A stretch of DNA of 64,000 nucleotides from assembly GCF_004010195.1 (NCBI RefSeq), contig NC_057726.1:61607835-61671834 (forward strand), given 5' to 3'. The position numbers and the translations under genes were made by a program. Each line of letters begins with the position of its first letter. The stretch's first letter is position 1. The stretch comes from Chiloscyllium plagiosum (taxonomy: Eukaryota). Positions 6,801 through 49,265 of the stretch are shown in pieces. Below the pieces are notes generated by a model that had not been told where the DNA came from, ran no database searches, and was given only the letters and a program-made list of their open reading frames with translations.

Positions 6801-9800
6801 CTGGAACTTCTGGTGTGACACAGGAATTAATACTGGGGTCACAAAGTTTCCAGTTATATATATTTATATATATTACATTTGGATGTAGCAAGTGCATGTA
6901 CAATGGCCGAGTTTATGGTTAACATTAAAGTAGGCTGGAGGCAGGATGATGAGAATTACACAAAAATCTTTAGAGGGATTTAGCCTGATTACGTGAATGG
7001 GCAAAGATTTGGCAGATGGGATATAATGTGGGAAAATGTGAGATTTATACACTTTGGCAGAATGAATGGAGGGGCCAAATATTCGTTAAATGCAGAAAGC
7101 CTGCAGAATGCAACGGAGCAGAGGAATTTTGGAGTCCCAATTCGCGAATCACAAAAAGCTAGCACGCATTTACAACAGGCAATAGAGAAGGCAAATGGAA
7201 TGCTGGCCTTTATTTCAGTGAGAATGGAATATAAAAAGCAGGGATATTTGCCAAAACTATACGAGGCACAAGCTAGGCCAATGTCCTTCCATCAAAAGGT
7301 TGACCAGTATTGTACGCAGTGATGTAGAATTGCTCTTATCAATCCCTTGCATTAATGAAATAGGGAGCTGTTCTTCTGATAACAATTCATGACAGTTTGT
7401 ATGATCAACATTTACTGAAATTAGCTTTGCATTCCAGATTTTTCGATTGAATTAATTCCCATTAGCTGCCCTAGTGAGATTTAAACCGATGTCCCCATGC
7501 TACTAACCTTGGCAACTGGATATCTGCCACTCGTTCTGTTTTATCAAGTCAAAAGTAGAGCATCCCCTTCCCTTACTCTACAGTGTCTTTTTTTAAACGA
7601 CTCCATTATCGCAATGACTAAGAGAAAGTGAGGACTGTAGATGCTGGAGGTCAGAGTCGAGAAGTGTGGCGGTGAAAAAGTACAGCAGGTCAACCAGCAT
7701 TGGAGGCTTAGGAGTGAAGATGTTTGCCGAAACGAACACTCTCCTGCTTCTGGGATGCTGCGTGACTTGCTGTGCTTTTCCAGCACTAAACTTTTCGACT
7801 CCATTATCATAATATTGATGTTGTATGAGAGTGACGTGGATATTTTATTCTTGACAATTCTGGCAGCATACCTGGGAATTGACAGTACTTTCTTCCGCGG
7901 GTCTGTGTTTGGAGAATCCTTTGTTGGTTTTCAATTTTACTGCAGCAGAGGCGGCATTTTCTTCAGCTGGTGCTTTTCTAAGCTAGAAAATAAGATATGA
8001 AATATCGAGAGAAGCGCATTTGATTTTACAGCCAGCCATTGGAACTGAACAATAGAATATTAACGTGCACACAGTAGTTAATCAAACAAGCTAGAAATTG
8101 CATTCTGTCAACTCTCAATGATTTGCATCTAATATCTCACCAATGTGTTGGGGAGTAATGTTCTAAATATGAAACCCAGAGCATTTAACGCATTTACCTA
8201 CAATTTAACATACAGCTGACGAAAAATAGACATTAATTAATTCCTCGTTTATCTCTAGCTCTCTTCAATCTTGTTGTAGCCTCGGCAGTTTCCTTATTCC
8301 ATAATTAACCCAGTCTATTAGAAGATCAGGCAGCGAAGCCTTTGGCTGTTCTCCTAATACTTTTGGAATCTTGTATTCTCTGACTGGCAACCAACAATTA
8401 GATTTCTGGCAAAAATTCTCCCCAAGCGCGTCTACAGTCATTATTTCCTCTCCCTCAGAAACTACGAAACAGCCTGCCCCCAGCACTGCTAACAGAGGAA
8501 TATAATGCAGAAAGGCCTGAGATTTTATGTCGCACACTACTTTAGGAAGATGTCGTGGTTTCGAGAGGATATAACAGAGATTTACGAGAAGGGTCCTAGC
8601 GTTCAGGGATTTCAATGATGTTTAGAAGCCTGGACATGATGCTTTACTTAGATCAGTTACGTTTAAGGGGAGATTTAACTTAAATGTCTAACATCTTGAT
8701 AAATTGTGATGGAATAAATTAGGATAAACAATTTTCATTGGCAGGATGTTTGAGATTTAGGCGACAAGATTCGTTTTCATTGGTAAATAATCTGGGGAGT
8801 ATGTTTGTTCTGCAGCCCAGTGAGCTGCCCGCAAACTGACAGAGTGACAGGAAGAATTCGATAGGAAGTTTCAAAAAGGGAACTGGATTGACCTGAAAAA
8901 TGTAATAAACAGGAGAATAGCACGAGACCGGAACAAATGACTTACTGCCTCATAGAGGCAGTAGAGGTGCTCGCTCTTCATCCCGGGCAATGTAATTCTC
9001 TGTTCTGTGAAATCAAAGTAATTTTGACTGAATGCAAAACTCATTGCTATCCTTTCCATGCACCCACCTCCCATTTGTTTGGAATATAATGAATATTGTC
9101 TCCTTACCGGTTGGACATTTTGATTTGCTTCCACCGAATTTCTTCCTCTGCCTAAGAGAAAGCAAAGTAATATAACGTGAGTGACAGAATCACTCATTCA
9201 ATGTCATGTCTTCGCTGCTAGAAACGTTTAATTTTTATATAAAGTTCAGAAATCTAGTTTGACAATGTTCAGCAGCACCAAGCTCGTTATGCTGTGTTTT
9301 ACCTGCTCACTGCTGTCATCGCGCTTTACCCAATGATGCAGAGTCAGTGACAGTGCAAGTGCAAGTCGGCGTCTTATTTAATCTACAAAATTAGAATGGA
9401 AATAAAATCTGCGGATGTGCATATCTGGTTGTGAGTTCGAAAATGCCCACTTAACCTTAATGCCAAATGCCAAAATCCATTCGAAACATTCGAAAAATGT
9501 TTCCTTCTCAGGAACTGGACCTCCACTGAACTATAATAGAGAACACTCAAAGTTTCGATTTCAGCACCATGGAGGTGAATAAACCGAGTGTATAGTTCGA
9601 ATAAGAAGGTGAAATATTTGCTTTTCAAATCCGGTTAGATCCTCATATCCTAAATTTAATGCCAGGCCTTTGATTTCTCACCTGCTCTCTATGCTTTTTA
9701 CACTGGGTCTGAGGAAATAAAAAGTATACAGTGAAATAAGAAAGATTCTTACCAGCTGATGCTTTCAATTTGAGTATCAAGAAAATGCTTATGATTAGTA

Positions 9801-12800
9801 CCATCGCCAATGCCCCTCCTGCACCTCCAATAATCATCGGACGATTAAAATCTTCACCTACAGAATCAACACGTGATGGAAGTGAACATGTGTGGAACAC
9901 AGGAGTGACATACACAGAGCAAAATGCACAGGATGATAAATTGCAAAGGTGTTTCTCAGGATAACCCAACTGTTAACCAAATTGGACAGTTTTAATTTTG
10001 TTGGGAAAACCTGTACAAGGTCCTTAATTCGCATCAGACCCAATGAATTGCAGCTCAGCTATGTATTTTATGGAGAAAACACATATAATGACTTAATGGT
10101 GTGAGAAACTTTATCTGCATAGGAACACTGTTTGCTATGAGTAAAGAAAGTTGTACTTGCTCATTCATAGAATCCGAGAAGAATCATAGAATCCCTATAG
10201 TGTGTAAACAGGTCATTTGGCCCAACAAGCCCACACCGATCCTCCGAAAAGTATTGCAGCCAGACCCTATTGCTCTCCATTTCCCCTGAATGATGCACGA
10301 AACCTACACATCCCTTAACGCTATGGGCAATTTAGTTTGGCCAATTCACCCAACTTGCACATCTTTGGACTGGGGGAAGAAACTGAAGCACCCGGAGGAA
10401 ACCTGCACAGACTCGGGGAGAATGTGCAAACTCCACAGTCGCCGGAGGCTGGAAGTGAAGCCAGTTTTTTGGTGAATCAACAGTGCGAACCACTGAGCCA
10501 CCATGCTGCCATTTAGGATCTTCCCCACACCACACACCCCAATCCCTATTAGATATATTTTCAATCTTACCTCGATTAAAGGTGTAGCTGACGCTGGTGG
10601 GCACCTTAAGACAAGCATGAGATACCAGACAGGTATAAACTGCACCACTCTGCACAGGCTGTGCATCTTCCAATGAACTAGTAACCTCATAAAGCCCATC
10701 CACGGTCTTGTTTTTCACAGTCTCCATTCCGGTATGAATTTTGAAACCATCTTTTAACCAAGAGATTCCTAAATCCTCTGGGTAAAATGCAGTCGTTTTG
10801 CATTCGAATTTCAAATAGTTCTCTGAAATCTCTTCTACGGGAACGATTTTCTGGAGTTTCGGAGGAACTATAACAGAAAATCAAACCTTTTAAAACATTA
10901 ATTTTCATTCTCTTTTTTTCACCCTTCACACTCGACCCGGTTCGGCACCCCATGTAATACTGTTCCATTACTAATGTGACAACAGTTTTCCTTGTTATTC
11001 TGTTTGAAACTTGGTATTTGCACTTATTTTTAAAAATGCTCAGCAAAATGTTTGGATCATTTGCAAACGATGCACAACGATCATAAACATGGGTAGAAAA
11101 ACTTTAATGAAATGCAGCTATCAGAATCGTCGGGGTTTAGCTTTATGTCAGTGAATTCGGTTTGATGAACTTTTTTTGGAAGACATTCTACCTGGAGGTA
11201 ACACACGAATTAGGAGCTGAAGTAGGACAGTCAATGGGTATCTCTCCATCCTGGAGGCTCCCTGCCTCCATTCCTGATGAAGGGCTTTGCCCTTTCCAAT
11301 CTAAACTTTGGTTTCCAGCATCTGCAGTCCTCACTTTTGCCCAGCCAATGGGCAGTCAATTCAGCTATTTGAGCCTGATCCAACAGTTAATATGATCTTG
11401 TCTGAGTTCTTTCTGTTCCTGATTGGCATTCCCGGTTTAGTATGAAACCTTTTTTTGAAGTATCAATTCTACATTACTCAAGTGAACTTGTGCCCTCTCC
11501 ATCTACAAGCGGTGTTTAGCTGCGAGCTGATCTCCTGTCATAACTCCCATTGCATAGAAAGAATAAGTTACAAACACGAGCGCAAACGTTTTTCGGCATG
11601 TTTGCTGCTGCCCTTCCTTCATTTTGCCTGCTATGCCTACATCAGAGAGTATCCATTTGGCGAACCGCAGAGGGCCAACCAGAGGCAATGGGCAACTTCA
11701 CTGCCTTACACGCTTTAGGATTGTGGATAGAATCCAGTATTGAGGGCAACGTCAACACTTGCTGTCTCACTGAATCATGTGATTCATTTGTTAAAATAAG
11801 CATTGGCATTTCAAACATGTTAGTATTGGGAAAATGCGCTCCCGAAACACTAATCAATTCCACTCTTGAACTTACTCTGCCATTCACTTAGGTTATGGTT
11901 GAACTGTACCTCAACTCCATTTGTCCGGTTTTATTCTATTTCCTTTATCCCCAGGATTAAATTTACTTGATGTCGATCTCCAAGTTTGAAGGATTTGCGA
12001 CAGAATAGTTTGATCGGCAATTTGGGGTCAAAACATTGTCTTGTGTCTGTTGAATATTAATGGCTGTGGGTATGTTTTCATTCACCTTAATTTGACGTGA
12101 ATGCATATTGTCGATGCTGATAAGATGGTCTTTATTATCTTGTATCAAAGCAAGAGCTGTTGGAGCTGTTAAAATTATTCTTATGAAAGATTATGACCTG
12201 AAATGTTAATTGTGTTTTTGATCAACAAGGAAGTTCAAAGGTATCAGAGCGGACAGAAAAATGCAGTTGAGACCATAATCAGATCAGCCATAATGTTGAT
12301 GAGTGGCTGAGTACACTCAAGGGATGAATGGTCTACTCTTGCTTCTAATTCTTATGATCGTATTACCTATGTAGATGTTCAGACATGTTTCAAATAATTT
12401 CTGTTCATATTCCAACTTTTCAAAATCCGTAGCACATTGTTTTGTTTTCTTTTTGATTCTATTGTCACAGTTTAGTACCGTTATTTTGGTTTGAAGTAAA
12501 CTGTGCATTTTGCCTCATGATACAAAAGACAGAAAATGCTAGAGAAACTGAGTAGGTCTGGCAGCATAAAAACATAATAAATAGTTGCAGGGGTAGGCCA
12601 TCTGACTCGCTAAGCCTGCTCTGCCATTCAATAAGCTTATCGCTTTCTTGGACTCAGCTCCACTTACCCGCCCTCTCACCTTTATTTTCTTTAATGTTCA
12701 AAAATCTAAGTATTTTTGCCTTAAAAACATTCATCGATATAGGTAGCTCCAGTGCTTCACTGGAAAGGGAATTCCTCAGATTCACAATCCTTTGAGTGAA

Positions 12801-14396: not shown

Positions 14397-14451
14397 CTGG
14401 CCAAGCCATACGCAGAAGAGCCATGAACAGAACCGCTGCTCTGACCAACAT
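14397..14451 (-). CDS. Identical second copy of the gene A signal-peptide exon (alternative exon 1)
   Basis: Identical to 13877..13931 including the donor, at an offset of 520 bp. Confidence 0.6.
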
Positions 14452-28185: not shown

Positions 28186-29333
28186 CATTAGTGTATATGT
28201 ACATGTTACTTAAATAGTATTAAAATGTATTTTGTGAAATTTACAGATACAACGGAAAAAAATGCAATTTTATCTGGACTTGAGCTATTGAGTTTCATGG
28301 TCCTGAATGTTAATAAACCACAAGCATTTTTATTTTATTGTGCCTATTATGTGTGTCCAACATCCTTCTCTTGATAATTACTTAGCACAATGGGGGAAAT
28401 GAGTTGAGTTCCCTCTTAAAAGAAATGTGAGAATTAAATGCTTTGCATTAGTCATTGGCATGGACATCACTGGCTAAGTTTATATTTATTATCCATCCCA
28501 AATCACCCTTGCAGATTGTGGTGAGCTGACTTTTGATTGCTTCAGTCCTTTGTGTGTAAGTACTCCCATACTATTGTTCAGAGGACAGTCAAGGATGTTA
28601 ATTCAGGAAGAAATGAGGATGTAATGCAGGCTGGTGTGCGGTTTGGAGAGGAGCATCTGCTGCTCTTGTCCTTCCAGATGGTCAAGGTCATGGGACTAAA
28701 AGTTGCTGTTGGAGGTGTCTTGGAGAGTTGCTATAATGCAACTTGCAGATAGTCCCTGTAAATCAAACGTGGAGGAATTGAATGTAGAAAGTATTGGATT
28801 GGATGCCTTTCACATAGGCTGCTTCACCTTGGATGGTGTTGAGCTTCTTGGCTGATAGATATGCACTCATGCAGGCAAATAGAGACTATTTCATGATGCT
28901 CCTGACTTATGCCTTATAGATGATGAAAAGGCATTCACATGTCACGAAGCAAATTACTGGCTGCATAAATCTTTGCCTTTCAATTGTTCTTGCAATGCCA
29001 GTATTTATTTAGAGTGCTGATAATGTTTTATAATGAGATTCATTTAAGTCATGTAAGAGCAGAGGCACCAGTCTCGAATAAGCATACAAAGAACCTTACA
29101 CAGTAAAATGAAGAGTTGTATTAGAGAACTTACGTACAAATGTACCATTAAACAATGAAAGTGAAAATTACCACTTCACCCTCCCTTCTTACCATGCACG
29201 AGTAATGTTACATATCATTTCAATAGTTAGCCACTATAAATGAAACAGTGATAGATATCAATTGTATGGTATATGACTGGATATCCTCGGCTTCCAACCA
29301 TAAATAATTCACTACTTCTGTTTTTCTAGATTC

Positions 29334-29475
29334 TCAGCTTCTTTTATTCGTTGCCAGCTTTATACCTGCATATACTGTGCATTTAGTCCAGCGATATAGG
29401 TGGTGATTTGTGTTTTGGAATTAGCAAGTTTCAAGTGGCATAAGCCAAATTGTCATCTCGGCTTCCTTGTTTAGT
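29334..29475 (-). CDS. Gene B terminal exon: coding to TGA at 29431 (TKQGSRDDNLAYAT*), followed by a frameshifted ITIM/ITSM relic
   Basis: Same acceptor as gene A exon 7 (ttactttcacag). A 1-nt deletion lies inside the ITIM, and relic CTVYAGIKLATNKRS* sits in another frame. Confidence 0.7.
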
Positions 29476-32400: not shown

Positions 32401-35400
32401 TACGAGAGAAGATACAAAACTTGACCTATTCTTGGCAAATAAGGCAGGGCAGGTGACTGAGGTGTCAGCGACCATAATTCTATTAGTTTTAAAATAGTGA
32501 TGGAAAAGGATAGATCAGATCTAAAAGTTGAAGTTGAAAATTGGAAAAAGGCCAATTCTGATGGTATTAGGCAAGAAGTTTCAAAGTCTGATTGGGGGCA
32601 AATGTTCGCAGGGAAAGTGATGGCTGGAAAATGGGAAGCCTTCAGAAATTAGATAACGAGAGTCCAGAGACAGTGTATTCCTGTTAGGGTGAAAGGAAAG
32701 GCTGGTAGGTGTAGGTAATGCTGGATGACTAAAGAAATTGAGGGTTTGGTTCAGAAAAAGAAGGAAAGTATAGACAGAATAGATTAAGAGAATCCTCAGA
32801 AGAGTATAAAGGCAGTAGGTGTATACTTAAGAGGAAAATGACGAGGTCAAAAATGGGACATGAGATAGCTTTGGCAATTCACGTTAAGGAGAACCCAAAG
32901 GGTTTTTACAAATACATTAAGGACAAAATGATAATTAGGGAGAGAATAGAGGTTGCTCAAAGCTCAGGAAAGTGGACTTTGTGTTGAACCGCAGGAGATG
33001 TGGGAGATATTAAACGAATCTGTTGTATCAATATTTGCTGTGGAAAAGGACATGGAAGGTATAGAAAGTAGGGAAATAGCTAGTGACATCTTGAAAAATA
33101 TCCATATTACAGAGGAAGAAGTGCTGGATGTCTTGACATGCATAAAAGTGGATAAACCCCCAGGACCTGATCAGGTGTACCCTAGAACTCTGTGGGAATC
33201 TAGGGGAATGATTGCTGGGTCTTTTACTGAGGTATTTGTATCACTGAAAATCACAGGTGAGGTACTGGTAAACTGGAAGTTGGCTAACGTGGTGGAAAAG
33301 TTTAAGAAATGTGGTAAGGACAAGCTAGGGAACTATAGACCAGTGAGCCTGATGTTGGTAGTGGGCAATTTGTTGGAGGGAATCCTGAGGGATAGGATGT
33401 ACATGTATTTGGAAAGGCAAGGACTGATGTGGGATAGGCAACATGGCTTCGTGTATAGGAAATCATGTCTCACAAACTTGATTGAGTTTTTTGAAGAAAC
33501 ATCTCTATGACTATGACTCGAAGTTACAAAGAGGATTGATGACGGCAGAGCAGTAGCAGTGATCTATATGGATCTCAGTAAGGCGTTCGACAAGCTTCCC
33601 AATGGGAGACTGGTTAGCATGTTTAGATCTCATGGAATGCAGGGAGAACTAGCCATTTGGATGCAGAACTGGCTCAAAGGTAAAAGACAAAGGGTGGTCG
33701 TGGAGGCTTGTTTTTCAGACTGTAAGCCTGTGACCAGTCAAGTTCTACAAGGGTCAGTGCTGGGTCCACTACATTTGATCATTTAGATGAATGATTTGGA
33801 TGTGAGCATAAGAGGTATAGTTAGTAAGTTTGCAGATAACACCAAAATTGGAGGTGTACTGGACAGCAAAGATAGTTACCTCAGATTATAACGGGATCTT
33901 GATCAGAAGGGCCAATGGGCTAAGAAGTGGCAGATTGAGTTTAATTTAGATAAATGCGAGGTGCTGCATTTTGGAAAGCAAACCTTAGCAGGACTTATAT
34001 ACTTACTGGAAACGGTCCTCAAGAGTGTTGCTGAGCAAAGAGACCTTGGAGTGTAGGTTCACAGCTCCTTGAAAGTGAAGTTGCAGGCAGATAGGATAGT
34101 GAAGAAGGCGTTTGGTATGCTTTCCTTTGTTGGTCAGAGTATTGAGTACAGGAGTTGGGAGGTCATGTTATGGCTGTACAGGACATTGGTTAGGCCACTG
34201 TGCAATTCTGGTCTCCTTCCAATGGGAAGGATGTTGTGAAACTTGAAATGGATCAGAAAAGATTTATATGGATGTTGCCAGGGTTGGAGGATTTGCGCTA
34301 TAAAGAGAGGTTGAATAGGCTGGGGCTGGTTTCCCTGCAGCGTCAGAGGCAGAGGGGTTTCCTTCTAGAGGTTTATAAAATCATGGTGGGCGTGGATCAG
34401 ATAAATAGACAAAGTCTTTTCCCTGGTGTAGGGGAGTCCAGAACTAGAGGGCATAGGTTCACGGTAAGAGGGGAACGATATAAAAGAGAGCTAATGGGCA
34501 ACTTTTTCACACAGAGGGTGGTATGTACATGGAACAAGCTGCCAGAGGAAGTGGTGGAGCCTAGTGGAATTGCAACATTTAACAATCATCTGGATGGGTA
34601 TATGAATAGGAAAGGTTTAGAGCGATATGGACTGGGTGCTGGCAGGTGGGACTAGACTGGGTTGGGTTACCTGGTCGGCATGGACAAGTTAGACCAAAGT
34701 ACCTATTGCCATGCTGTACGTCTCTGACTCTATGACTCTAAGTCGACATTTCAAATGTAACCTGAAGAACGTTTACATCCGAAACGTCGACTCCTCCACC
34801 TCCTTATGCTGCCTGGTGTCAGTTACGAATTCTGTCTACTTCAGTAGAACAGGCCTTAATCTGACCTTTTGCATCATCAGAATTTGTAGATATATTACTC
34901 TATGTCTCTTAATCTAAATGATTTAAATAGATCACAAAATTGCAGAAATAACAGTGTGCCGAATTGAAAACGTTCAGTTTGTCCTCACTCTTTGCTTCAT
35001 ATCTTCTAAACTATTCTCTATCGATGTATATGTATTACCTGAACTCTATCAGTTCTTGTTTTTCTCTTGAACATGTTGAATGCCTCTTGGAAGTCTCTGC
35101 ACACAGTATTTGTAAGTTTCCTGTTTTCTACCTTGCAAGATAAAGTTCCAAATTCTCTAAAATACTTGCCAAACATGATTTCTCTTTTGACAAGATATTT
35201 TGACTTGTGCTAATCCTACTACACATTTCTAACTGCATTTTTTATACTCTTTTAATAGTATGTTGCAGACCTTTGTTAAGGAATAATGTCAGGTGAACGG
35301 CCCTGCAGTTCCCTGTTTTCCCTTTCTTTTTCCTTGAAAGTGAAGTTATATTTTCCAACTCTCAATCTGATGCGAATACTTTTGGAAATAAGGAATTTTG

Positions 35401-38400
35401 TTTGACCATTGTTCACATAGATGTCTTCATTTCCTGTGAAACTGTCTGTTGTCTCTGTTTGTGAGTGCAAATATTTACTTTGGGATGTCTCTTTTTTGTA
35501 TACTTAATAATGGTCTTACAATCAAATTTTATATTTTTAGCTAGTTTGCTCCCCCCCCCATTTTATCAATTTTTTGATGCATTCTAATATCATATTTAAC
35601 TTATTGAGTGAGTCATGGATGATGTTCCTGACTGAGTTTTTATTATTTAACTAACTAAATTTTGCTCAGCATCTTGAATTGGGTCTTTAAATCCTTCCCA
35701 CTGTGCATTTAATTATCAGCATAATAAAGTTATATAATCAACCTATTTTCACTGCATTTTGATATAATTGATATTGTTTAAGTTAATGATTCATGCTCAT
35801 GATTGGAACTTTGAAACCTAATATGGAATTCAATGGTTTTGTGGTAATTATTTCCTGGCAGACTTAGTAATTAATAAAACATTATAATTATAATTAATAA
35901 TAATTATGATAGCTAGATAGATTAGTTATCTATGATAACTTCATCCAGAGGCAGCTGTAAAATGCATTGCTGCATGAAGTGATCACAAAAAACTCTGCAA
36001 ACTTCTCTTCCAGATTGTCCTTTAAAAAATTTAATTGACACTCCCGATGTGAAGGTTAAATTTACCCAGGACAAATACATTTCCTTTGTGTCAAACTGCA
36101 AAGGTTTAGTTCTATGTTTGGTCCACAATACACTTTCTGTCATGTGTCCTAAAAACTGCTCCAGCTATCATTTTCTGACTCCTGATATTTCCATTTACCA
36201 CGGAGTGTGATTCTGTTTTGTGATTTTCTTTCCAATGTTGCTGCAACAGGAGTGATTCCAGCCTTGGGTGACTGCCTGTGTGGAGTTTGCACATTCAACC
36301 CATGTCTGCGTGGGTTTCCTCTGGGCGATCTGGTTTCCTTCCACAGTCCAAAGATGTGCGGGTCAGGTGGATTGGCCATTCTAAATTGCCCATAATATTA
36401 GGAGAATTAGTCAGAGGGAAATGGGTCTGGGTGGGTTAATCTTCGGAGGGTCGGTGTGGACTGGTTTGGCCGATTAGGGAATCTAATCTAAAAAAAATCC
36501 TTCTTATGAGAGCCACCTTCCACTTTTACAATGTTGAATTCCTCTTGAAATGTGTGTACCTTGGAATATTTATTCCCCAACCTTGGTCACCTTGTAGTCA
36601 TATCTCAACAGTAGCGATCCAATCAATTTACAATACCTATATTTGTGTAATGAACACACCTATTTTCTTGAAGGTGCTTCATGCATTTAGAAGAAAAGAG
36701 CCTTTAATTCCACTACTTTGCTTCTTATTCTTGCATTGACTTTATTCACAGATGCAGAACTGAAGCTAACTTACAGTCCCATCCTGTTTTTTTTTTAACT
36801 ACATCTCTCCATTGTTCTATTGTCTTCATGTCTTATTCTATCTCTTTGGATTGCTCAATCTCGGTTCACCATAACTGTCTCTCTCTACTACTTTAATACC
36901 TGACGACAGCTCTCGTAATTGCAATTGTCCCACTGAGTTTAAGTAGCGCCCACATAAATGAAATGGCTTCCTGTTTCGCAAATGATCAAAACCCTTTTGT
37001 CCAACAGCATTGCTTGAACCATATGTCGAAGTCTCTAATCTGCTGTATGCTATGTCAACTGGTAACAGGCCAGAGATTATTACCTGATAATTTGTGCACT
37101 GTTAATTTGGGCATTTTAAAACTCAGCAGAGCATTATTCCTTGCATTGGTTTCTATGACAACGAGATCGTCCCATCTCACTACAGGTTCCTTCAAGGTCA
37201 TGGGGAGATGACCTTAACCTTGGAACAAGGCATGTCACACAGCATTTCAAGTTCCCAGTGATGATGATCATAATTTGGCCGGGTTGTGCTATGCAAGTGT
37301 TTCAATTTAGCAACTAAGCACCTGGGAATTTCCTATTTTTTAAGCTGTTTGAATTATAAAGATTAGAATGAGAAGTCTCTTCTTTAAATTAGCTGCCTGA
37401 AAGCATGTCCTAGTTAATTACCAGAGACAGAAAAGTGCTTTTCTGGCAGGGTAAGGAAGTAGACATTGAGTTTTCTTCATTCAGAATGCGTACACAATAA
37501 GAATGTAACTGCCAGAAGAGAGTGCAGAAGAGATCTACTAGAATGGTGTCAGGAATGGGGAACTTCATTAATCCTGGGTAGACTAGACAATTTATGATTG
37601 AATTGCGCAGGGCGGAAAAAACCAAAGGGACGATTGTTTCAAGTTTTTTACAATTACGAGAGATTTCAATAAAGCAAAAATGATTTCAATTGTTGATCTG
37701 TCAGCATGCAGAGGATAAATTTACAATTACTGATAGAATAACTATGGGATTACGAAGATTTATTTTGTGGAAACCTCTATAGTACTTTTGAATATCTGGC
37801 AGAAGCAAAGTTAGTAGAAATTAAAAAAAAATGAAGAAAAGATTACCTAAAATGCAAAAATACAGAGCTAGGTACAAAGAGTGAGGAGCTGGGCTGATTG
37901 ATTAGTTATTTTCTAAGACCTACCCAACAGTAACAGTCTCCTTTAGTCTATGATTCAATAAATGTTCTCAGCTGATTGCAATACTTCTTGCTATTCCTTC
38001 ATAACTGTTCTTCTATGAAGAAAGATTATGCCCTTACCAGCTGTTGAGTTTCATCCACTTCTACAGAATGTTTCCTAACACCTAAAGGAAAGAAAAGAAA
38101 TCTATACTGAATGTAAAATATAATAACACAATTATAGCAATGAATAAATGAATATATTGGAGCTGATTCAGAGGAGGCTTACTCGATTGACACTTGGAAA
38201 TAACTGGTTGTTTCATGAGGATAAGTTCAATAGACTCGGTTTCTTTCCACTGGAGTTTGGAACAATAAGAGGTGATCTGATTGCAGTGTATCAGTTACTG
38301 AACTATTTGACAAGATGGACATAGAAAGAATACTTTCTTTTGTGGATGAATCCAGAACAATGGGATACAGTGTACCAATTAGAGATTGTCCTTTAGAGAC

Positions 38401-41400
38401 AGAAATGTGGAAGGTTTCTTTTATCACAGAAAATTGTGCCAGTTTGGAACTCCCTGCTCCAGAAGGTGATCGTTGAATATTTTAAAGGCAGTAGTGCTTG
38501 GATTCCTGTTAGACAAGGGAAATGAATGGTTACTGGGGGATAGTTGGGAATGTGGAATACCAAACACGAACTGATCAGTGATAACCTTATTGAGTGATGG
38601 TAGGTCTGGAGCAGCTGATTGGTCTACTTGTGCTTTTAACTCATATATACTGTATGCTTGTGGGAATAATGTATTGAGTGCACAAGCATCAATAGGGATC
38701 TGCCTTCCAAAGATCTAGAGCTCCGTGTTGAGTACATTGTCTTCCCAAATCCTCCCTTGGTACTAATCACAACAGAGTAGACTCTTCCTCTTGTGGGAGA
38801 GTGAATTGACAGTTTAGTTTGCATTGCAAAGTTACTTTGGACATAACAATTGGGAGTAAAGTGAACCAGATTGGCATAGTGATTGCAACCAGGTTGATAT
38901 TATTGACTGTGTGATCCTCGATTGGGGTTGTAACCCTGGCTGACCAATATAAACAGGAGATTCTGGATGCCCCTGGAGAAGGAAAACTTGGTGTCTACCA
39001 GTAACCTCGAGGTTTTTATGACGAGGTTGGCACCATAGTGTGTAGAGTGTTTTATTCCCCCCTCTGATTCTATTTTGATTTAATCTCTACCCTTCCTTTC
39101 AATTTTTCAATCATGTAGGAGCATGTCCCTAAGGAGCATTGGCGACTTGGGTGCTTTTTCTTCCTGGTGGTGGAATATGAATAATGTTTTATTCACTCGT
39201 TGTTTCTTCACTGTGTCCTGCACATATATGCACACAACATGGGTGCTGGGGAGAAATAAGCACGACTGCTGTTTGGTGGTAGCATGGAGGATTGAGGAAA
39301 AATATATAAACAGGGGACTCAGGATCTCCTCACTTCATGGACTGACTCTGGGCTGGATGGCAACAGCCAGTTTACCGTACACTTGTAAATAAAGGGCGAT
39401 TTGGTGACAGTATACCAGCGTCAGTGTCGTTATTTCAGTTAACTATTCTGATATCACTTTAAAATGAGTACACTGGCACTGCTACTTTTAGAACTGGATT
39501 GGGGTGGGAGTAATTTGTTTACAAAATTGAGGAAATAGTTTGAATGAGGTTTATGTTGTCATGTTGAATTGTCAAACTGCTTCTAACATCAACTTCATTC
39601 TTTAAAGATGTAGAAAGGTGTTCACTATTCCTGCATAGTTATTCACTATTCATCTGCTCTTTATGTCTTCTAACAAGTAAAATTGCCTCTTGGAAGATGA
39701 AACATATTCAGCAGAATAACAAAGTAGAAGTTCATAGAAGTTCATAGAATATGCACATCTGGTATATGAATGCTGGTATACTGTCACCAAATATCATTGG
39801 GACTTGGAAACTAAAAATATTCAGCAAAATAACAAACATTCTTACCAGCTGATGCCTTTAACTCAAGTCTTGTTAAAATGATTATCAATAGTAAAATTGC
39901 CAGAATGCCACCAGCCCATCTAGAGATCAGCAGATAATTGAGATCTTTACCTATAGGATTAATAACACTTGAATGAGAAACTGCAGAGTACAGCGTGATT
40001 TCGACACAGAGAATCATGATTCAGACACAGGAAGGCGATCTGCAAAATAGTATCCCAGGACGATCACATCCAATAAACATCAATAGAGACTGATCCTTTT
40101 TATTTCAATGGGTAGTATGTGTAAAACGATTATAAGGTGTATCACATGACATATCAGTCACAATCCCACAATACAACTTATGGAGGGAACAATTCCATAG
40201 AGATTGAGGAATCTTCACTCCTGGTCATTTCTTAAGAGGAAAAACAGTTACATATTATTGATATCATCGTGTTAGCATTACACATGATTGATATCATCGT
40301 GTTAGCCCTTTATTTACATTGAAAGCACCAGCTGGAAAAAATCATCAGATTTAACACTTCCTGTAACTTTTGTCAATTAATATATGCATCTTGCTTTCAT
40401 TTAACTCGTTTAACATGACAAAGCATCCAATGCTCTCCAGAGGACTGTTATCAAGCAGTCCAGCCACATAAGGCACATTAGAACAAATGGATCAGAAACA
40501 GAAACTCCTGGAGCAAATCAGCTGGTCCAGCAGCATCTGTGGAGAGAGAAACTGATTAAATAATTTGAGTCGAGTGGCCCTTCTTTAGAACTGATAGCAG
40601 CTAGGAAAAAGTGGTATGTATGTTGAAGACAAATATTGGGGAATGGAGAGTGGAGGTGGAGAAAGGGGTGAGCAGAAAGGCAGAGATGGAGCCAAAAGAG
40701 AGAGAACAATAAAAAAGGATGGATGACAACATGCCAGGAAAATAAAAAGCTGACATTGGTGATCATAACTAGATGAAAATTGGTTGACTGTGCTGAAAGC
40801 AGCTCATGTCATTGCCAGGATCTGCAGTGTGAGTGTCGGTAAAGGATATGAAAGTAGTATTCAGGCACTAAAATTATTGAGCTCGTCATTGAGTTCTGAA
40901 GGCTGCAATATCCCCAAGTGGAAAATGAAATGCTGCTCTTCCAGGTTGCACTGAGGCTTGATGCATCACTGCAGCAGGTCTGAGACAGGAATGATAGCCA
41001 GAGAACATGATGGTATGCTGAAGTGGCAGCAACTGGAAACTAATTTTTAAGGACAGAATGAAAGTTTGTTTACAAAGCTGTTGCCTGGTCTGCATTCTGT
41101 CTCAGCAGTGTATAGGAGACAACATTGTGAGCTGTGAATATAATATATAGGTAATCACTGCTTCACTTGGAAGCTGTGTCTGGATTCGAGTGTGAGGAGG
41201 AAGGAAGTAAATGGGCTACCACAATATTGAACCTACTTCTACTTTCTTCCCAAAATCTAGCAACAGGAATGACAGGGCAGAGCTGCTGTTCCTGCCACAC
41301 AGACTTAATCTCTTAATACCTTGATTCAACATTTTATCCCATTCTCAGCTCAGTTCCCATTAATATCCATGATTTATGTGAAACGTTGCATCTGTTTAGA

Positions 41401-44400
41401 GTTTCCGGTTTGTGGGCAGCAACTGTCTCATCTTCATTTTGGATGTACAATGCGTTTACACATCCACCTTCTGTCATGGTGGCTTTATGGTTCCCCACTT
41501 GAACTGTCCCTATTCACCAACCCTCCACTATCTGGCCAAGGTTGTACTCACTTTGAAGAACTTCTCATTTTCCTCCTCTCACCTTCTTCAGAGCAATGGT
41601 TTGGCTATAGATACCTTCATGGTCTTCAGTTCTGTCTGTCTCCTTGTACGGTACATGGAACTTCCCTTATCCTTATCCCATTCAGGTCCTGCCCCACAAC
41701 TCTTTCCCTGTTTCATCGCTAATTCATCAGTGCTTCTTCTGACTCTCATCAAAAACTGGAAAAATTGATTAATTTCACTTTCAATTTCTACGCTGCTCCT
41801 ACCTTCTCCTAGTTCATCTCTGACTCCTCCCTTCCCTTCCTCGACTTTCTGTTTCTTTTTCTGGGTATATGTCTGGCCACAAATTTTCATTACAAACCCA
41901 TCAACTTCCACAGTTACATGGGCAATCAATCCTCACATTGCAAATCCTGTAAAGACGCCTTTCCATTCCAAGTTCTCTATTTGCATCACATCTGTTCTGA
42001 TGATACTACCTTCAGTTCACAGAAATTCCCACTTTTTTTCTCATCCAAGGATTCTCTGCGACATGTTTAAGAGGGCCTTCAGCCATTTCTGATCCATCTC
42101 CCATTCTTCTGCCCTCACTCATCTTCATCCACAATATCGATAGGGTCCTCTTTGTCAACTTCCAGCTCACCTCCCCCAAAGTCACCATTTCTGACACCTC
42201 CCATGGGATACCACCACCAGACACACATGCCTTTCCCCTCCTTTGCCACTAATTTGCCACCATTGCCCACTCATCCTCCACTGCCAACACACCCTTACAC
42301 TCCCACGTCACCTTGCCATGCAGAAGGTGCAACACTTTCCCGTTTACTTTCTCCATCCTCACCATCTAAAGTCTCAGATGCAGCTTGCAGGTAGGGCACT
42401 GATATACCTGCACTTTACTCAATCTAGTCTCCTGTATTCATTGCTCATAATGTACTCACCTCTACATTGGGGAGACAAAACACAGATTGGCTTGCAGAAC
42501 ACCAGTGTTCTGGCTGCAAAAATGTCCCCTGAGCTTCCAATTGCTTGCCGCATCAACAGATTACCATGGTCCCAGCCAACATCTGGGCGGCACGGTGGCA
42601 CAGTGGTTAGCACTGCTGCCTCACAGCGCCAGAGACCCGGGTTCAATTCCCGCCTCAGGCGACTGACTGTGTGGAGTTTGCACATTTGCCCCGTGTCCGC
42701 GCGGGTTTCCTCCGGGTACTCCGGTTTCCTCCCACAGTCTAAAGATGTGCACGTTAGGTGAATTGACCATGCTAAATTGCCCCTAGTGTTAGGTAAGGGG
42801 TAAATGTAGGAGTATGGGTGGGTTGCGCTTCGGCGGGGTGGTGTGGATTTGTTGGGCCGAAGGGCCTGTTTCCACACTGTAAGTAGTCTAATCTAATCTC
42901 TGTCTCGGGCGTGCTGCAGTACTCCAGTGAAGCTCAGTGCAAGCTGGAAGAACAGCACCTCATTTTCCACGTGGGGATAATTTGTCTTCAGACTCAATAT
43001 ACAGTTCAATAATTTTAGGATCTGACCATTTATTCCATGAATTTTACACTCCCCCACACCCCAAGCCCAGACATGACATGAGCTGCTTTCAACATAGCCA
43101 ACCGAAGTTCATCTACTTACGGGCCCCATCATCAACTTTTCTTCCTCCGTGGCATGTTATCATCCATCCCTTTGCCTGCCAAACTGTCATTGTATCTGGG
43201 TTCCATCTCCACCTATCTGTTCTCTCCCTACCTCCCAACCCAAACATGTCTTCAGCAAAAATACCACCCTTTCTTAGCTGCTATCAGTTCTGAGAAATGG
43301 TCACTGAACTCAAAATATTAACTCTGCTTTCTCTCCAGAGATGCTGGCAGGTTTTCTGAGTTTCTCCAGCTTTTTCTCTTTTTTTCCAACATCCACAGTT
43401 CTTTGTTTTGTCTGGATGGCAGGTTATAACTACTGGAGTGCCATAAGTTTTGGTCCTTTGACCCCAGCTATTTACAGTCTACATTAACGACTTGGAAAGA
43501 GAGAGCGAAGGCCCTATAGGCAAATTTGCGGAAGACACAAAAATAGGCAGTATGGTAAATTGCAATGATGAAATAAGAACCTTACAAATGAATATAGATA
43601 GGTAAGGAGAGTGGGCCAATATGTGGCAGATAAATGGCTAGGTGGCTGATTGTGAAGTCATGCATTTGGCTCAGAAAAATGGGAAAACGACCTATTATCT
43701 TAATGGGTAGAGACTTCATGGTGCTCTGGTGCAGATGGATTTCGGTGTACTCATTAATGAGTCAGAGAAAACTGGCATGAGGTACAGTAAATACTAAAGA
43801 AAGCGAATGGAATTTTGGCTTTTATAGCTTCAGGAAAATAATATAAAGGTAGGGAAGTATTGTTGCAACAGTACAAGGTATTGTTGAGACCACGCCTGGA
43901 GTTTTGTGCACAGTCTTGGACCTCTTACTTTAGGAAAGATGTAATGGCATTGGAGAAAGTTCAGAGGAGGTTCATGGATTGATCCCAGACATGAGAAGTT
44001 TGTCATATGAAGAGAGATTGGACAATTTAGACTTATACTTACTGGAATTTCGCAGAATGAGGGGAGATCAAATTGGGATATTCAAGATGATAAAAGGCAT
44101 AGATAAAATAGACGTGGAGCAAATAGAGTCATAGAGATGTACAGCTCAGAAACAGATTCTTCGGTTCAACTCGTCCATGTTGACCAGATATCCCAACTCA
44201 ATCTGTTCCCACCTGCCTGCAGCTGGCCCATATCCCTCCAAACCCATCCTATTCATAAATTTATCCAGATGCCTTTTACATGTTGCAATCGTACTAGCCT
44301 CCACTACTTCCTCTGGCAGCTCATTCCATATACATAACATGCTCTGCATGAAAACGCTTCCCCTTAGGTCTCTTTTATATCTTTTCCCTCTCACCCTAAT

Positions 44401-47400
44401 TTCATTTTACTTGGTAAGAATTTGAGGAATATTTTGATTCTTTTCCCATTTATTACACTTTGGGAGTTAATACAGACTGCATCCACACCTTTCCCCGTGT
44501 TTGGACAGCTGTTCAACTGCCTGTCTACTCTCTAAACCCAGATTGGAGCACTTGGTCCATTTCACTGTTGCCAATGTTTCCAGTCTTACCTGGATTGACG
44601 GTGTAGTTGACACTGGCGGGTACAGGAAGGGAAACATGTGACACCAGACAGGCATAAACCACTCCGCTCCTGACGGGATGCGCTTCTTCCAAAGAGCTGG
44701 AAACCTCATAAAGCCCATCTGCTGTCTTCTTCACGGCTTGTATACTCGGCAGATTTTCGACACCATCTCTTCGCCAGGTGATACTGACAGGCCCCGGGTA
44801 ACAGGCAGCGGTTTTACACACGAGTTTCAGGGAATCGGCGGAAATCCCTTCAACTTGAATGACCTTCAGTGGCAATGGCGACACTTAAAGGAGAAGATAA
44901 AAAAGAAATGGAACATCTCCTCATTTGACCACATCCGTGATACTGTTACATTCATAGCGTGACAATACTTATGCTCTTTATCGTTTAATTTTAAACATTG
45001 AAGTGTTCTATCCCCACAACAAAATAGCAGGAATATGTGAAACGATAAGCAGAGTTTGAATCTCCCAGGACTGGTAACACGTAGGAAGACAGTCAGAATG
45101 TTCGGAAGGAGATCCTGGAACGGGATTGGAGTTAGCAGCAGTCGGATCTCTGAGCAAATCTTTCGAAGGCAGTACACCTCATTGTGCTGCTGAATCATTT
45201 CTCCCCTTAGTGCAGTAGGGAAGGTTTGTGGTATTAAACATTTTGTCTCGTACATTCCTTAAAACATTTCCTAAAGAAGAGTCAAACCAAACTAGAAACG
45301 CTAACTCCATCTCTCTCCACAAATGCTGCCAGATCCACAGCAATTCTCTTCGATTGTTTCCTCTTTTTCAGCACATCCCTGCAGCTTTTAATGTTTCTTT
45401 CCGGATAGGTATAAAGTTCCCCTTTGTCTGCTAAGATTGCACCAAGGTGTCCGGTAGTGCCCTCCAGATCCTTACAAAACTGCTGTTAATGATTTTCTGA
45501 CTATTGTACGTGACTGTTTTGCAAATTATCTTAAATCTACGTCCTCTGTTTGTTCCTCACCAATGGGATCAGCTTATCTGGTGTATACTGTCCTTAGCCT
45601 TGTTAATTACTGATCAGTGTGTAGTTCATAACATCCGCACAGATGCAGAATCCAGGATGGAAAATTCCAATTCTGAGTGCATGTCTTATATAATTCCAGC
45701 GTTTTTGTACTCCCTCAGATCATTATGTCTGCTGGACTCTGTATTTGCCTGCTTTTATCAGCTTTATTTTTGACCTTTAACAGACGTGAATCAGTGTCCG
45801 TACAACCTGGAGGTATCATAAACCTGAGATATGGGGCGTTGTTAAGTTTGCATTATTTGTGAGATTATTGAGGAGCAATTTGATGTTTTCCTTAGGTGCA
45901 TACTTTTCTGAAAATTGCAAAACATAAAATACCATAAAATATGGTCATTATCAATTTGCAAGTTTCGTTACAATTTATGGTCAACAGAACTGCATTAAGT
46001 GCATAGCCCAGACTCAGGATTGCGTCATTCTTTAACCCTGGATCTGCGTTAGTTAAGGGTGGCAAATATGTGATCCAGGAGATGTTAGAATTGTTCCCAC
46101 TGTCACATGTCAGCATGGTCACTTTGGAGAGAAGGTGTCTTGTCTTCGAGTCATAGAGACGGACAGCATGGAAACAGGCTTTTCGGTCCAACTCATCCCT
46201 GAAGAGCAGATATCCCAATCCGTCCCACCTGCCAGCTTTCAGCCCATATCCCTTGAAACCCTTCCTATTCATATATCCATCCAGATGCTTTTAAATGTTA
46301 TAATAGTGCTAGTCTTCACCACTTCCTCTGGCATCTCATTCCATATACATACCACCCTTTGCGTGAAAACGTTACCCCGTAAGCCTCTTTTATAACTTTC
46401 CTCTCTCACCCTAAACCTATGCTCTCCAGTTCTGTACTCCCCCACCCCAAGGAAAAGACTTTGTCTATTTATCTGATTCATGCCCCTCATGATTTTTATA
46501 GACCTCTATAAGGTCACCTCCCAGCCTCCAACGCTCCAGCCTATTCAACCTTTCCCCATAGCTCAAATACTCCAACCCTCGGAACATCCTTGTAAATATC
46601 TTCTGAATCATTTCAAATTTCACAACATCCTTCTGATAGGAAGCAGAACAGAATTGCACGAATATTCCAAAAGTGGCCTAACCAATCTCCTCGACAGCGG
46701 CAACATGACCTCCCAACTCCTGCACTCAATACTCTGAGTGATAAAGGAAAGCATACCAAACGCCTTCTTCACTATCTTATCTACCTCGACTCCACTTTTA
46801 AGGTGCTATGAACCTGCACTCCAAGGTCTCTTTGTTCAGCAACACTCCCTAGGACCTTACCATTAAGTGTATAAGGCCTGCTAAGATTTGTTTTTCCAGA
46901 ATTCAGCACCTACATTTATCTAAATTAAACTCTATTTGCCATTTATCAGTCCATTGCACCATCTGATCAAGATCCTGTTGTAATCTGAGGTAACCTTCTT
47001 TGTTGTCCACTACACCTCCAATTTTGGTGTTATCTGCAAACTTACTAACTATACCTCTTATGCTCACATCCAAATCATTTATCTAAATGACAAAACGTAG
47101 TGGACCAAGCACCGTTCCTTGTGGCACTCCACAGGTCACAGGCCTCCAGCGAGAAAAATGACCCTCCACCACCACCCTCTGGCTTCTATCTTTGAGCCAG
47201 TTCTGTATCTAAATGGCTAATTCTCCCTGTATTCCATGAGATCTAACCTTGCTTTCTGGTCTCCCATGGGGAACCTTGTTGAACGCCTTACTGAAGTCCA
47301 TATAGATCATGTCTACTGCTCTGCCCTCATCAATCCTCTTTGTTACTTCTTCAAAAAACTCAATCAGGTTTGTTAGACATGATTTCCCACGCACAAAGTC

Positions 47401-49265
47401 ATGTTGACTCTCCCTAATCAGTCCTTGCTTTTCCAAATGTATGTGCATCCTGTCCCTCAGGATTCCCTCCAACAATTTGTCCACCACCAACGTGAGGCTC
47501 ACTGGTCTATAGCTCCCTGGTTTGTCCTGACCACCGTTTTTAAACAGTGACACCACGTTAGCCAACCTCCAGTCTTCTGGCACTTCACCTGTGACTATCG
47601 ATGATCCAGATATCTCAGCAAGGGGCTCAACAATCCCTTCCCTAGCTTCCCACAGAGTTCGAGGGAAGGTCCCGATTAGGTCCTGGGCATTTATCCACTT
47701 TTATGCGTTTCAAAACATCCAGCTCTTCCTCCCCTGTAAAATGGACATTTTTCAAGATGTCACCATCTATTTACCTACATTCTATACCTTCCATGTCCTT
47801 TTCCACAGTAAATACTGATGCAAAATACTCGTATAGTATCTCCCCCACTTCCTGTGGTTCCACACAAAGATCACCTTGTTAGTCGTTGAGGGGCCCTGTT
47901 CTCTCCCTAGTTACACTTTTCTCCTTAATTTATTTGTAAGAACCTTTTGAATTCTCCTTAATTCAACTTGCCAAAGCTATCTCATGTCCCCTTTTTGCCT
48001 TCCTGATTTTCCTCTTAAGTATACACCTACTGTCTTTCTAAACCTCATTGATTCATTCCAAACCAAAATGTAAACTTGTATTTCAGTATCATGTTTTGAT
48101 AAGAATTGCAACTGGACAAACATAAAGCTAGATACAACCGTTTCTAGTATCAGGAGAGCAAGCGAGTGAAATTGATCTTTAACTAAAGTACTCAAATAGC
48201 GAGAATGAATCGGTTATTTAACACGAACTCAATGACAAAGAAACTACGAGCCAATGTAAAAGCAATTTGAAGAACCTTCATCTAACGATAAAAAGAATTG
48301 CACGTATCTAATAAAACTGAAAATCAGCCTATCCCGATACAAGGATCCTTACCGGAAACAGTCAGCTGTGTGCCACCTCCATCTTCAATCGACCTTCGCC
48401 GGTGCTTTACCTCACAGAAATACACTCCGGCGTCAGCTAAACTGGCGTTTAGGATATAAAAAGAACTTGTTCCCCTGTTTGTATTGATTCGCTTTCTGCT
48501 GTCTGGCTTCAGAAACGATTCCTCACCCCGTCTCCGCCAATAAACATCAGGAGTTTCTTCAAAGATAGGTAACATGCAGAAAATGGAAACATTCCCACCT
48601 CTGGTAATGCTCAACAACTTAGGGAACTGTTTCACTTTTCTCAAAGTTACTTCAGCCGCTATCAGAAAAGAAAGAAAAGCCACGATAATACACTGTATTT
48701 GATCAGAACAGAAACCGCACGGAGCAAGATTAGGCCGTTCAGCCTCATAAGCCTGTACGGCTATTCAATAATTCTGTTCTGATTGTAGTTCAAATCCGCT
48801 TTCCCACGTATCCCTGACAACCTTTCAACCCGTGGAGAAAGTGAGGACTGCAGATACTGGAGATCGGAGCTGAAAATATGTTGCTGGAAAAGCGCAGTAG
48901 GTCAGGCAGCATCCAAGGAGCAGGAGAATCGACGTTTCGGGCATAAGTCCTTCTTCAGGAATGAACCTGCCTAACCCACTGCGCTTTTCCAGCAACACAT
49001 TTTCAACCTTTCAACCCGTTGCTTGGTAAGAATAGGATAGACACAGGGCAAAGAAAAACCTTAGCGAAGTAAAATGTAAGAACTATTGAAAATGATAGCG
49101 ATCGAAGTGAAGCAGCACAGTGTTTGATTGTACAATGTAGAGCCATTGCAGCATATAGCAAAATAGGGCATAACGGATTTGGTGTAGCACCATTTAACAA
49201 CTGAACATACCTGACCAAATGATGCCAAGTAGAGTTATGTACTGTACTGTAACCCTCAGCAACAT
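29431..49265 (-). CDS. Gene B: IgSF type I membrane receptor (leader-V(J)-C1-TM with Arg-short tail), putative activating paralog of gene A, 282 aa; join(49211..49265,48353..48658,44590..44883,39846..39950,38038..38081,29431..29475)
   Basis: Six GT-AG exons with phases 1,1,1,1,0 total 849 nt and are open. The V domain is about 50% identical to gene A by manual alignment (50/99). Confidence 0.82.
30860..34740 (+). mobile_element. Near full-length degenerate CR1/HER1-like LINE (ORF1 esterase-like; ORF2 APE + RT) in the last intron of gene B
   Basis: ORF1 motifs IVLGDSLVR and HIGNNDIG. APE motifs AITETWL and VGDFNFPNIDW. RT motifs NYRPVSL, QHGF, MDLSKAFDK, QGSVLGP and KFAD. Tail ctctatgactcta. 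Multiple stops and frameshifts. Inserted into a short hairpin element. Confidence 0.92.
36250..36490 (+). mobile_element. 5'-truncated HE1-like SINE
   Basis: tgtgtggagtttgcaca..cacagtccaaagatgtg core and (aatct)n tail. Confidence 0.8.
38038..38081 (-). CDS. Gene B exon 5, membrane-proximal cytoplasmic
   Basis: Acceptor ttcctttag, donor CTG|gtaagg, 44 nt, VRKHSVEVDETQQL. Confidence 0.85.
38890..39437 (+). mobile_element. Solo-LTR-like element with a nested Tx1 3' end (about 38975..39303)
   Basis: TG..CA ends, TATA-like motif and AATAAA. The insert encodes a decayed EKE..VST..LE.F..R.AP..VECFI C-terminus. atataaacagg is repeated on both sides. Confidence 0.5.
39846..39950 (-). CDS. Gene B exon 4, transmembrane with N-terminal arginine
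   Basis: Acceptor cctatag, donor G|gtaaga, 105 nt. KDLNYLLISRWAGGILAILLLIIILTRLELKASA. Confidence 0.9.
40490..43410. mobile_element. Penelope-like element with inverted terminal arms and an RT remnant
   Basis: The left arm (40490..41215) is the reverse complement of the right end (about 42330..43410). A decayed RT lies between them. Confidence 0.7.
42585..42899 (+). mobile_element. Young full-length HE1-like tRNA-derived SINE nested in the PLE
   Basis: Intact A box (tggcacagtgg), B box (ggttcaattcc), retained CpGs and (aatct)n tail. Confidence 0.9.
43413..44397. mobile_element. Two abutting CR1 fragments (plus 43413..44122, minus 44123..44397)
   Basis: GVP..LGP, KFAEDTK and RPRLE motifs, then an inverted CR1 3' tail. 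Confidence 0.75.
44590..44883 (-). CDS. Gene B exon 3, Ig C1-set domain
   Basis: Acceptor ttctcctttaag, donor G|gtaaga, 294 nt. Motifs LVCKTAACYPGPVSITWRRDG..DGLYEVSSSL..YACLVSH. Confidence 0.95.
46148..48045 (-). mobile_element. CR1/HER1-like LINE, 5'-truncated, in the gene B V-C1 intron
   Basis: ORF 47209..47583 PEDWRLANV..YRPVSLT..MDFSKAFNKVPH. Same family as 30860..34740. Confidence 0.9.
48353..48658 (-). CDS. Gene B exon 2, Ig V-type domain with J-like motif GGGTQLTV
   Basis: Acceptor ttttctgatag, donor G|gtaagg, 306 nt. Motifs VSIFC..VYWRR..ADAGVYFCEV..GGGTQLTVS. Confidence 0.95.
48835..49003. mobile_element. Short Penelope-derived hairpin element with 16-bp target-site duplication
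   Basis: caacctttcaacccgt flanks both sides; internal inverted repeat. Confidence 0.8.
49211..49265 (-). CDS. Gene B exon 1, signal peptide MLLRVTVQYITLLGIIWS
   Basis: ATG at 49265, 55 nt, donor CAG|gtatgt. Homologous to the gene A leader. Confidence 0.85.

Follow-up and report, generated by a model that had tools for sequence, protein, structure and literature searches.

On balance we favour the view that gene B, one of two tandem minus-strand genes in the window (the whole stretch of DNA that was analysed, 64,000 nucleotides from Chiloscyllium plagiosum), encodes an activating single-pass V-C1 receptor, in which an arginine of the transmembrane segment (TM) would recruit a signalling dimer of the CD3-zeta/FcR-gamma type. 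Judged by its sequence, the gene is likely an inhibitory receptor turned activating, an Arg having been gained in the TM and the inhibitory motifs of the tail lost by a frameshift. It is likely also the activating half of a receptor pair, with another C. plagiosum protein, P0020, as its counterpart. Gain of a basic residue in the TM together with loss of ITIMs is the textbook mechanism in mammals, and here the known mechanism is met in an apparently undescribed family; a literature search, which covered few subscription journals, found no description of a shark V-C1 receptor family. The single codon is modest on its own, and the value is carried mainly by the family-level pattern, in which the inhibitory-to-activating change seems to have recurred in a little-studied family of sharks and rays.

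Gene B and its arginine codon

Both genes of the window have leader, V, C1, TM and cytoplasmic exons, and a profile scan found no further exon of the family, Ig exons included, within the window. Gene B comprises six exons, all of them open and with their splice sites intact, whose joining follows from homology and phases, not from reads. They are listed here with the codon of interest, the remainder of the last exon and the TM exon of gene A.

49211..49265, minus strand: gene B leader exon, coding part; tblastn to leaders of relatives; GT donor
48353..48658, minus strand: gene B V-type Ig exon, which also encodes a J-like last strand; Pfam V-set/ig
44590..44883, minus strand: gene B C1-set Ig exon; Pfam C1-set
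39846..39950, minus strand: gene B TM exon; 105 nt, phase 1/1, AG/GT ends; inhibitory-class scaffold
39919..39921, minus strand: Arg codon AGA in the gene B TM exon; the plus strand reads TCT
38038..38081, minus strand: putative first cytoplasmic exon of gene B; 44 nt, phase 1/0, AG/GT; length and phases match 9108-9151 of gene A
29431..29475, minus strand: gene B last exon, coding part; ends LAYAT-stop; incomplete ITIM
29334..29430, minus strand: dead remainder of the last exon of gene B; TVYAGI out of frame; old stop at 29336-29334; AATAAA at 29348
9753..9857, minus strand: gene A TM exon; 105 nt; the codon aligned to the Arg of B is GGA at 9828-9826

The original prediction had read AGA (Arg) in B at 39919..39921 and GGA (Gly) at the aligned codon of A, and both codons, as well as the quoted peptide, are found. 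The further description of the two genes as separated by a single-base Gly/Arg difference holds for the codon itself but not for the genes, A being a distant paralogue of B and not a recent sister. The TM exons align without gaps and differ at 36/105 nt and 17/34 residues, too many for the two genes to make a minimal pair; on the same ground they were rejected as a one-base pair, the apt partner of B being P0020. The V and C1 exons of the two genes are only about 70% identical at the DNA level.

By alignment, the TM of B is of the inhibitory class of the V-C1 receptor family. When the Arg column is omitted, the four TMs nearest to it are all of the Gly type, from the horn shark, with ITIM-like tails (23/28, 22/28, 21/28 and 20/28), and a run of 17 consecutive residues is identical to a horn-shark TM. 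Since these four nearest TMs are Gly-type with ITIM-like tails, the Arg would be a gain on an inhibitory scaffold. The change is not confined to the Arg, B having Ser-Arg-Trp in place of the Phe-Gly-Cys of the nearest horn-shark TM. The NxxR motif is not present in B, where, counted from the Arg, position -3 is Leu and position -6 is Asn.

The V-C1 receptor family

The V, C1, TM and tail exons of B are homologous to members of a chondrichthyan V-C1 receptor cluster. V-C1 relatives, which make up a large family, were retrieved from sharks, rays and chimaera under automatic names that vary (SIRP-alpha-like, B7-H6-like, tapasin-like, light-chain-like). Within a species, nearly all named members sit on a contig of equal length (in C. 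plagiosum P0020, P0169 and P0094, for example), which suggests one cluster of V-C1 receptor genes per genome. Against the PDB, the family profile places UrIg2 first (E 9e-33) and SIRP-alpha fourth (1e-23), with antibodies close behind. P0001, a C. punctatum relative of B, gives B7-H6 as first structural match when used alone, and an Atlas feature search puts SIRP-alpha clusters first (0.93); the three comparisons point to different families. NKp30 is absent among the structure and profile matches listed for P0001 and for the family profile.

The SIRP family resembles B in having V-type and C1 domains and paired forms with ITIMs or a charged TM, and many of the relatives are called SIRP-alpha-like in RefSeq. 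The SIRP ectodomain is V-C1-C1, with two C1 domains as opposed to one in B, and mammalian SIRP-beta1 uses a central Lys and DAP12. The original prediction compared B with SIRP-beta; the orthology that this presupposes is not supported, the profile scoring UrIg2 above SIRP-alpha. SIRP was rejected as the family of B, each gene having a single C1. B7-H6 was likewise set aside, and so was NKp30 because B has a C1-set exon, NCR3/NKp30 being a single VJ domain without C1. A V exon with a J-like end, as in B, is described in the sections drawn on for shark NCR3/NKp30 and for UrIg/UrIg2, which are non-rearranging VJ genes (PMC12227049, PMC10751288). According to the same sections UrIg2, the top PDB match of the profile, has nine C1 domains as against one in B.

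The arginine column across sharks and rays

The comparison started from 105 sequences of at most 560 residues, A and B included, of which 77 have a TM-like segment; removal of three false calls and three isoforms left 71 rows, one of them from the coelacanth. A V-only search among longer proteins gave 1 match of 87 candidates. The column occupied by the Arg of B holds Gly in 34 of the 71 rows, Arg in 17, Ala in 8, Val in 4 and Lys in 0, and the other columns from -2 to +15 never contain more than two basic residues. The Arg rows fall on two scaffolds. Nine of them, with one Gln row (P0067), constitute a separate TM class that ends in Asp/Glu-His, and eight, B included, have the ordinary Gly-Cys-Ala-Gly-Gly scaffold.

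The dedicated class has been seen in sevengill, catshark, horn shark, white shark and both Chiloscyllium species, and the Arg of B is in the same register as that of this class. The Arg is thus not peculiar to B, since the family, C. plagiosum included, already has a dedicated Arg-type TM. The members are P0006, P0007, P0009, P0029, P0034, P0059, P0094, P0101, P0172 and P0067 (Gln for Arg), with the Arg near the top and Asp/Glu-His 17-18 residues on; P0094, from C. plagiosum, has NxxR. We take this class to recall the activating TMs of the mammalian LRC.

Among the other seven Arg rows on the ordinary scaffold, three have solely non-Arg rows among their four nearest (Arg column omitted), for two the closest Arg and non-Arg rows are equally near, at low identity, and the last two are nearest to each other. 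This distribution suggests that the Arg was gained repeatedly on the ordinary scaffold. The count of independent gains is not fixed because the TM-only tree is poorly resolved (4/68 branches well supported). On the ectodomain tree, a quick tree, the Arg label requires 12 changes, 8 of them on well-supported branches, although shuffling of TM exons could also yield these.

The presence of the Arg goes with shorter and plainer tails. Distal ITIM-like motifs occur in 3/16 Arg rows vs 33/53 non-Arg rows (Fisher p 0.0036), or in 5/16 Arg rows when membrane-edge motifs are counted (p 0.044), and the median tail is 34 residues in Arg rows vs 83 in the others. With kinship counted, the link between Arg and lack of ITIMs keeps its direction and is not significant (8 independent pairs, on average 4.8 in the same direction and 0.5 in the opposite, median p 0.125). 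ITIMs are also lacking in 20/53 non-Arg rows, and incomplete gene models, which blur both groups, may account for many tail-less rows. Conversely, the Arg row P0040 retains a family-type ITIM.

Several other members of the family are worth recording. P0004 (catshark) and P0050 (little skate) have Arg at +1 on the inhibitory scaffold and short Tyr-free tails. Tree partners with near-identical ectodomains are P0004 with P0007 and P0050 with P0025. In Heptranchias, P0101 and P0154 are identical letter for letter at the C1 end and carry an activating-class and an ITIM-class TM and tail, respectively; either the two form a pair of recent origin or one gene has alternative TM exons. P0069, P0071, P0088, P0145 and P0181 make up a subfamily, conserved in hemiscylliids, in which the TM has Trp-Trp-Ile-Tyr, the juxtamembrane stretch is rich in Cys and the tail is basic and free of ITIMs.

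Taken jointly, the observations could describe a large undescribed cluster of paired receptors with non-rearranging VJ-C1 domains in cartilaginous fish, in which an ancient dedicated activating TM exists beside an inhibitory TM that is one base away from activating, and in which the latter flipped from Gly to Arg independently several times in sharks and rays. We offer this broad picture tentatively, as a possibility short of even chances.

Closest relatives of gene B

An inhibitory protein with a near-identical ectodomain is found in the same species, putatively in the same cluster. This is P0020 (XP_043563239.1), an automatic gene model of C. plagiosum, which is identical to B at 69/76 residues of V and 89/97 of C1, or 158/173 (91%) over V+C1. 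It has Gly-Trp where B has Arg-Trp, and two intact tyrosine motifs. The similarity falls off beyond the ectodomain, the TM of P0020 being just 21/34 identical to that of B and its tail no nearer to the tail of B than the tail of A is. P0020 is treated as a paralogue because the window agrees in every letter with the RefSeq model for gene A. The second close relative, P0001 (GCC26427.1), also an automatic model, is identical to B at 93/100 residues of V and 89/97 of C1 (182/197 over V+C1), and the model ends after C1. B, P0020 and P0001 are grouped in the family tree at SH-aLRT 100. Among the relatives retrieved, no true orthologue of B that includes the TM was found, and the protein searches for relatives gave no record matching B itself.

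Near-identical ectodomains on differing TM and tail blocks are the pattern expected of paired receptors that diversify by conversion or exon shuffling, which is how we would read B and P0020. At 175 ectodomain sites, private amino-acid changes number 11 in B, 5 in P0020 and 4 in P0001, a rate difference that is not significant (p 0.21). Changes away from the family-majority residue account for 8/11 in B vs 1/9 in P0020 and P0001 together (p 0.01, with a threshold set post hoc).

The broken tail

The last exon of B (from 29475) is homologous to that of A (72.7% over 161 nt). Relative to A it has a 1-nt deletion that brings a TGA into frame at Tyr+3, three codons past the first Tyr, and the ITIM is incomplete because this stop removes its completing hydrophobic residue. 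Counterparts of the middle cytoplasmic exons of A were not found in B. With the exons as assigned, the tail would be about 39 residues long and have no complete ITIM. The second motif lies 70 nt past the first Tyr in B vs 69 in A, so that at least one further indel must have occurred in the dead stretch of B. By comparison, the 846 coding nt upstream of the break contain zero stops, frameshifts or broken splice sites. A single extra indel would land in the 97-nt dead stretch by chance with probability 0.10, and two would both do so with probability 0.011. As the further indel or indels lie only in the 97 nt past the break and none in the 846 coding nt, the comparison suggests, with weak to moderate force, that the frame of B was kept after the tail had died.

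The broken tail would also fit if B were a decaying or signalling-dead inhibitory copy, a young pseudogene or a decoy, on which the Arg is neutral. The change from Gly to Arg takes one transition, 8/11 private changes in B leave family-majority residues of the ectodomain, and the protein and read searches produced no record or read that proves expression of B. In the neighbouring gene A, too, comparison with the C. plagiosum RefSeq model P0169 reveals an early stop and the loss of a Tyr, which suggests that tail decay is common in the cluster. We nevertheless consider this explanation rather unlikely: the 846 coding nt have stayed intact while the stretch after the stop took at least one more indel, the 17 consecutive TM residues are still those of a horn-shark TM, and the Arg sits in the one column that is used by relatives. 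Activating receptors may also diverge fast.

Four read runs over 28900-48850 were swamped by repeats; the 15 entries listed of 889 include no exon joint, and no read in these runs joins the TM or tail exons of B. In the raw-read run, a single-cell polyA run of which 2% was read, depth is zero in the TM and last-exon bins, a result that weighs neither for nor against expression. A 288-nt contig (X1 record 8), from a run presumed to be RNA, matches 48439-48660 at all but 7 positions. The match ends two bases beyond the V acceptor, at a point where an AG closes the leader as well as the intron. The contig fits splicing of the V exon, and a paralogue or a relative may be its source.

Predicted position of the arginine in the membrane

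The TM was predicted with a position-dependent hydrophobicity (insertion) scale with approximate constants. On this scale the ten best windows (22-25 residues) place the Arg at TM position 3-7, and the top score is -4.4 kcal/mol, compared with -3.0 when the Arg is excluded. At lengths of 19 and 21 residues the best-scoring window has the Arg at position 1, and at 16-18 and 20 residues the Arg falls immediately outside. An outer-TM location, as first proposed, is therefore what the ten best windows predict, whereas short windows put the Arg at the edge or outside. We place it, on prediction, in the outer part of the bilayer. In FcalphaRI, the Arg is at TM position 3, and the Asp of FcR-gamma is at position 6, in the sections drawn on of the source (PMC1440944).

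The shorter windows would suit a different role, in which B is expressed and the Arg, at the outer interface beside a Trp, merely sets the boundary of the helix and binds no adaptor. The best windows of 16-21 residues do begin at or just past the Arg, a Trp after an Arg is typical of a membrane interface, and NxxR is missing from B. These windows are, however, outscored by the longer ones that contain the Arg by 1.0-1.4 kcal/mol. Moreover, Tyr-Leu-Leu-Ile precedes the Arg, and excluding the Arg leaves 16 residues before the cytosolic Arg. A similar predicted position (2-7) is found in most of 20 Arg rows, the dedicated class included. A purely interfacial Arg is improbable.

The likely adaptor

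By analogy with mammalian rules, the Arg of B would pair with the Asp residues, one per chain, in a zeta-zeta (or gamma-gamma) dimer, binding of a ligand by the V domain would lead to ITAM signalling, and B would balance an inhibitory partner, for example P0020, whose ligand is identical or similar. The premise of the original prediction, that an N-terminal TM Arg marks receptors coupled to FcR-gamma or zeta, agrees with the literature as far as the sections drawn on go (PMC1440944, PMC13107469). According to the same sections, activating forms arose from inhibitory ones through focal TM changes (PMC1440944, PMC13107469), and the Arg of CD89 binds the Asp pair of the adaptor dimer, which is assumed likewise for NKp46 and NKp30 (PMC13107469). 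Context also matters, as excerpts of the two papers indicate: for FcalphaRI, a polyleucine TM that retained the Arg reached about 11% of wild-type assembly (PMC1440944), and Arg-type receptors assemble under constraints of orientation (PMC13107469).

The TMs of the FcR-gamma and zeta chains are nearly identical. CD3Z is expressed in catshark and nurse shark, according to part of one report (PMC10768021), and FcR-gamma is reported absent from cartilaginous fish in passages from one group working with older genomes (PMC4016189, PMC5742104); literature searches on shark FCER1G and DAP12 yielded just these two papers. CD3-zeta is the safer guess of the two because it is documented in sharks and FcR-gamma is reported absent. 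On the tentative picture of the cluster given above, and if FcR-gamma is truly absent, the family would signal via CD3-zeta, and zeta would be the original partner of Arg-type innate receptors. An activating B that uses a DAP10/DAP12-type or shark-specific adaptor instead of zeta or gamma is very unlikely, for although Arg is also used in NKG2D-DAP10 and rodent Ly49-DAP12 (PMC1440944) and one survey, in the part drawn on, reports FcR-gamma absent in sharks (PMC4016189), the parts of two papers drawn on describe NKG2D and Ly49 as type II proteins, the Arg of NKG2D as central, and DAP12 as requiring a central Lys in type I receptors, with its Asp at position 9 vs 6 in FcR-gamma (PMC1440944, PMC13107469).

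Comparison with known paired receptors

The comparisons in this section hold for the portions of the cited papers that were drawn on. The closest parallels to B in the TM are FcalphaRI (CD89), NKp46, GPVI, LILRA2, PIR-A, OSCAR, NKp30 and Xenopus XFL TM1, which like B are type I proteins with a single N-terminal TM Arg (PMC1440944, PMC13107469, PMC2413239). They share with B a short tail without a complete ITIM and are intermingled with inhibitory relatives. In NKp30 the Arg is in the top half of the TM (PMC13107469), as predicted for B. The differences are that B lacks NxxR, a motif of the LRC and XFL TM1 subtype, that its TM appears to be of inhibitory-class descent, and that its ectodomain is V-C1 whereas theirs is C2-type. 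In XFL TM1, TM and tail are on one exon, while the tail of B is still on separate exons (PMC2413239). Paired receptors of the NxxR type are described in Xenopus (PMC2413239).

Activating KIR and NKG2C are similar to B in that each is an inhibitory receptor with a basic TM residue added and the tail motifs removed (PMC1440944). Human KIR differ in using a central Lys and DAP12, the Arg of B being a point change on its own inhibitory-class TM. Macaque activating KIR use Arg and FcR-gamma, but on a TM borrowed from KIR2DL4 by recombination, unlike B (PMC8102735). In sharks, LRC-type (KIR/LILR) genes and FcR-gamma were both missing from one survey, in the part drawn on (PMC4016189). The V-C1 cluster is a candidate for the paired innate receptors of sharks, with B and P0020 as a near-matched pair, and if the tentative picture of the cluster is true and FcR-gamma is absent, the family would be the shark counterpart of KIR/LILR.

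Gene A and the rest of the window

The exons of gene A other than the TM exon are as follows.

13877-13931, minus strand: gene A leader
13363-13671, minus strand: gene A V exon; 102/102 identical to C. plagiosum RefSeq model P0169
10571-10867, minus strand: gene A C1 exon; 98/98 identical to P0169
9108-9151, 7872-7982 and 3787-3834, minus strand: gene A cytoplasmic exons; end LTYANL-stop

The first tail exon is also identical to P0169 (14/14). Gene A retains one ITIM-like motif at its very end, the distal TLYAGI being cut off by a TAA. This TAA (3787-3834, minus strand) is a Gln in P0169, which continues to a second Tyr motif, and the middle exon (7872-7982, minus strand) has Asn in place of Tyr relative to P0169. 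At 4440-4547 (minus strand) gene A has what is left of a third cytoplasmic exon: the match is weak (E ~0.08), a stop interrupts the frame close to the beginning, and P0169 skips the exon.

Positions 1-1747 are a 95% identical copy of the region upstream of gene A (14524-16280), which makes it likely that a further gene copy, A', begins immediately beyond the left end of the window. P0169 seems to join V-C1 of A to the C1 and tail of A', without a TM, and is likely a wrong model. A tandem duplication of about 520 nt at 13798-14849, real or an assembly artefact, gives two identical leader exons of gene A (13931, 14451). Gaps of 500 N occupy 1748-2247 and 53248-53747. An 865-nt direct repeat (92.7%) joins 20714-21575 and 53748-54609, its second copy beginning at an assembly gap edge. 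The introns in the window are filled by many LINE and SINE remnants.
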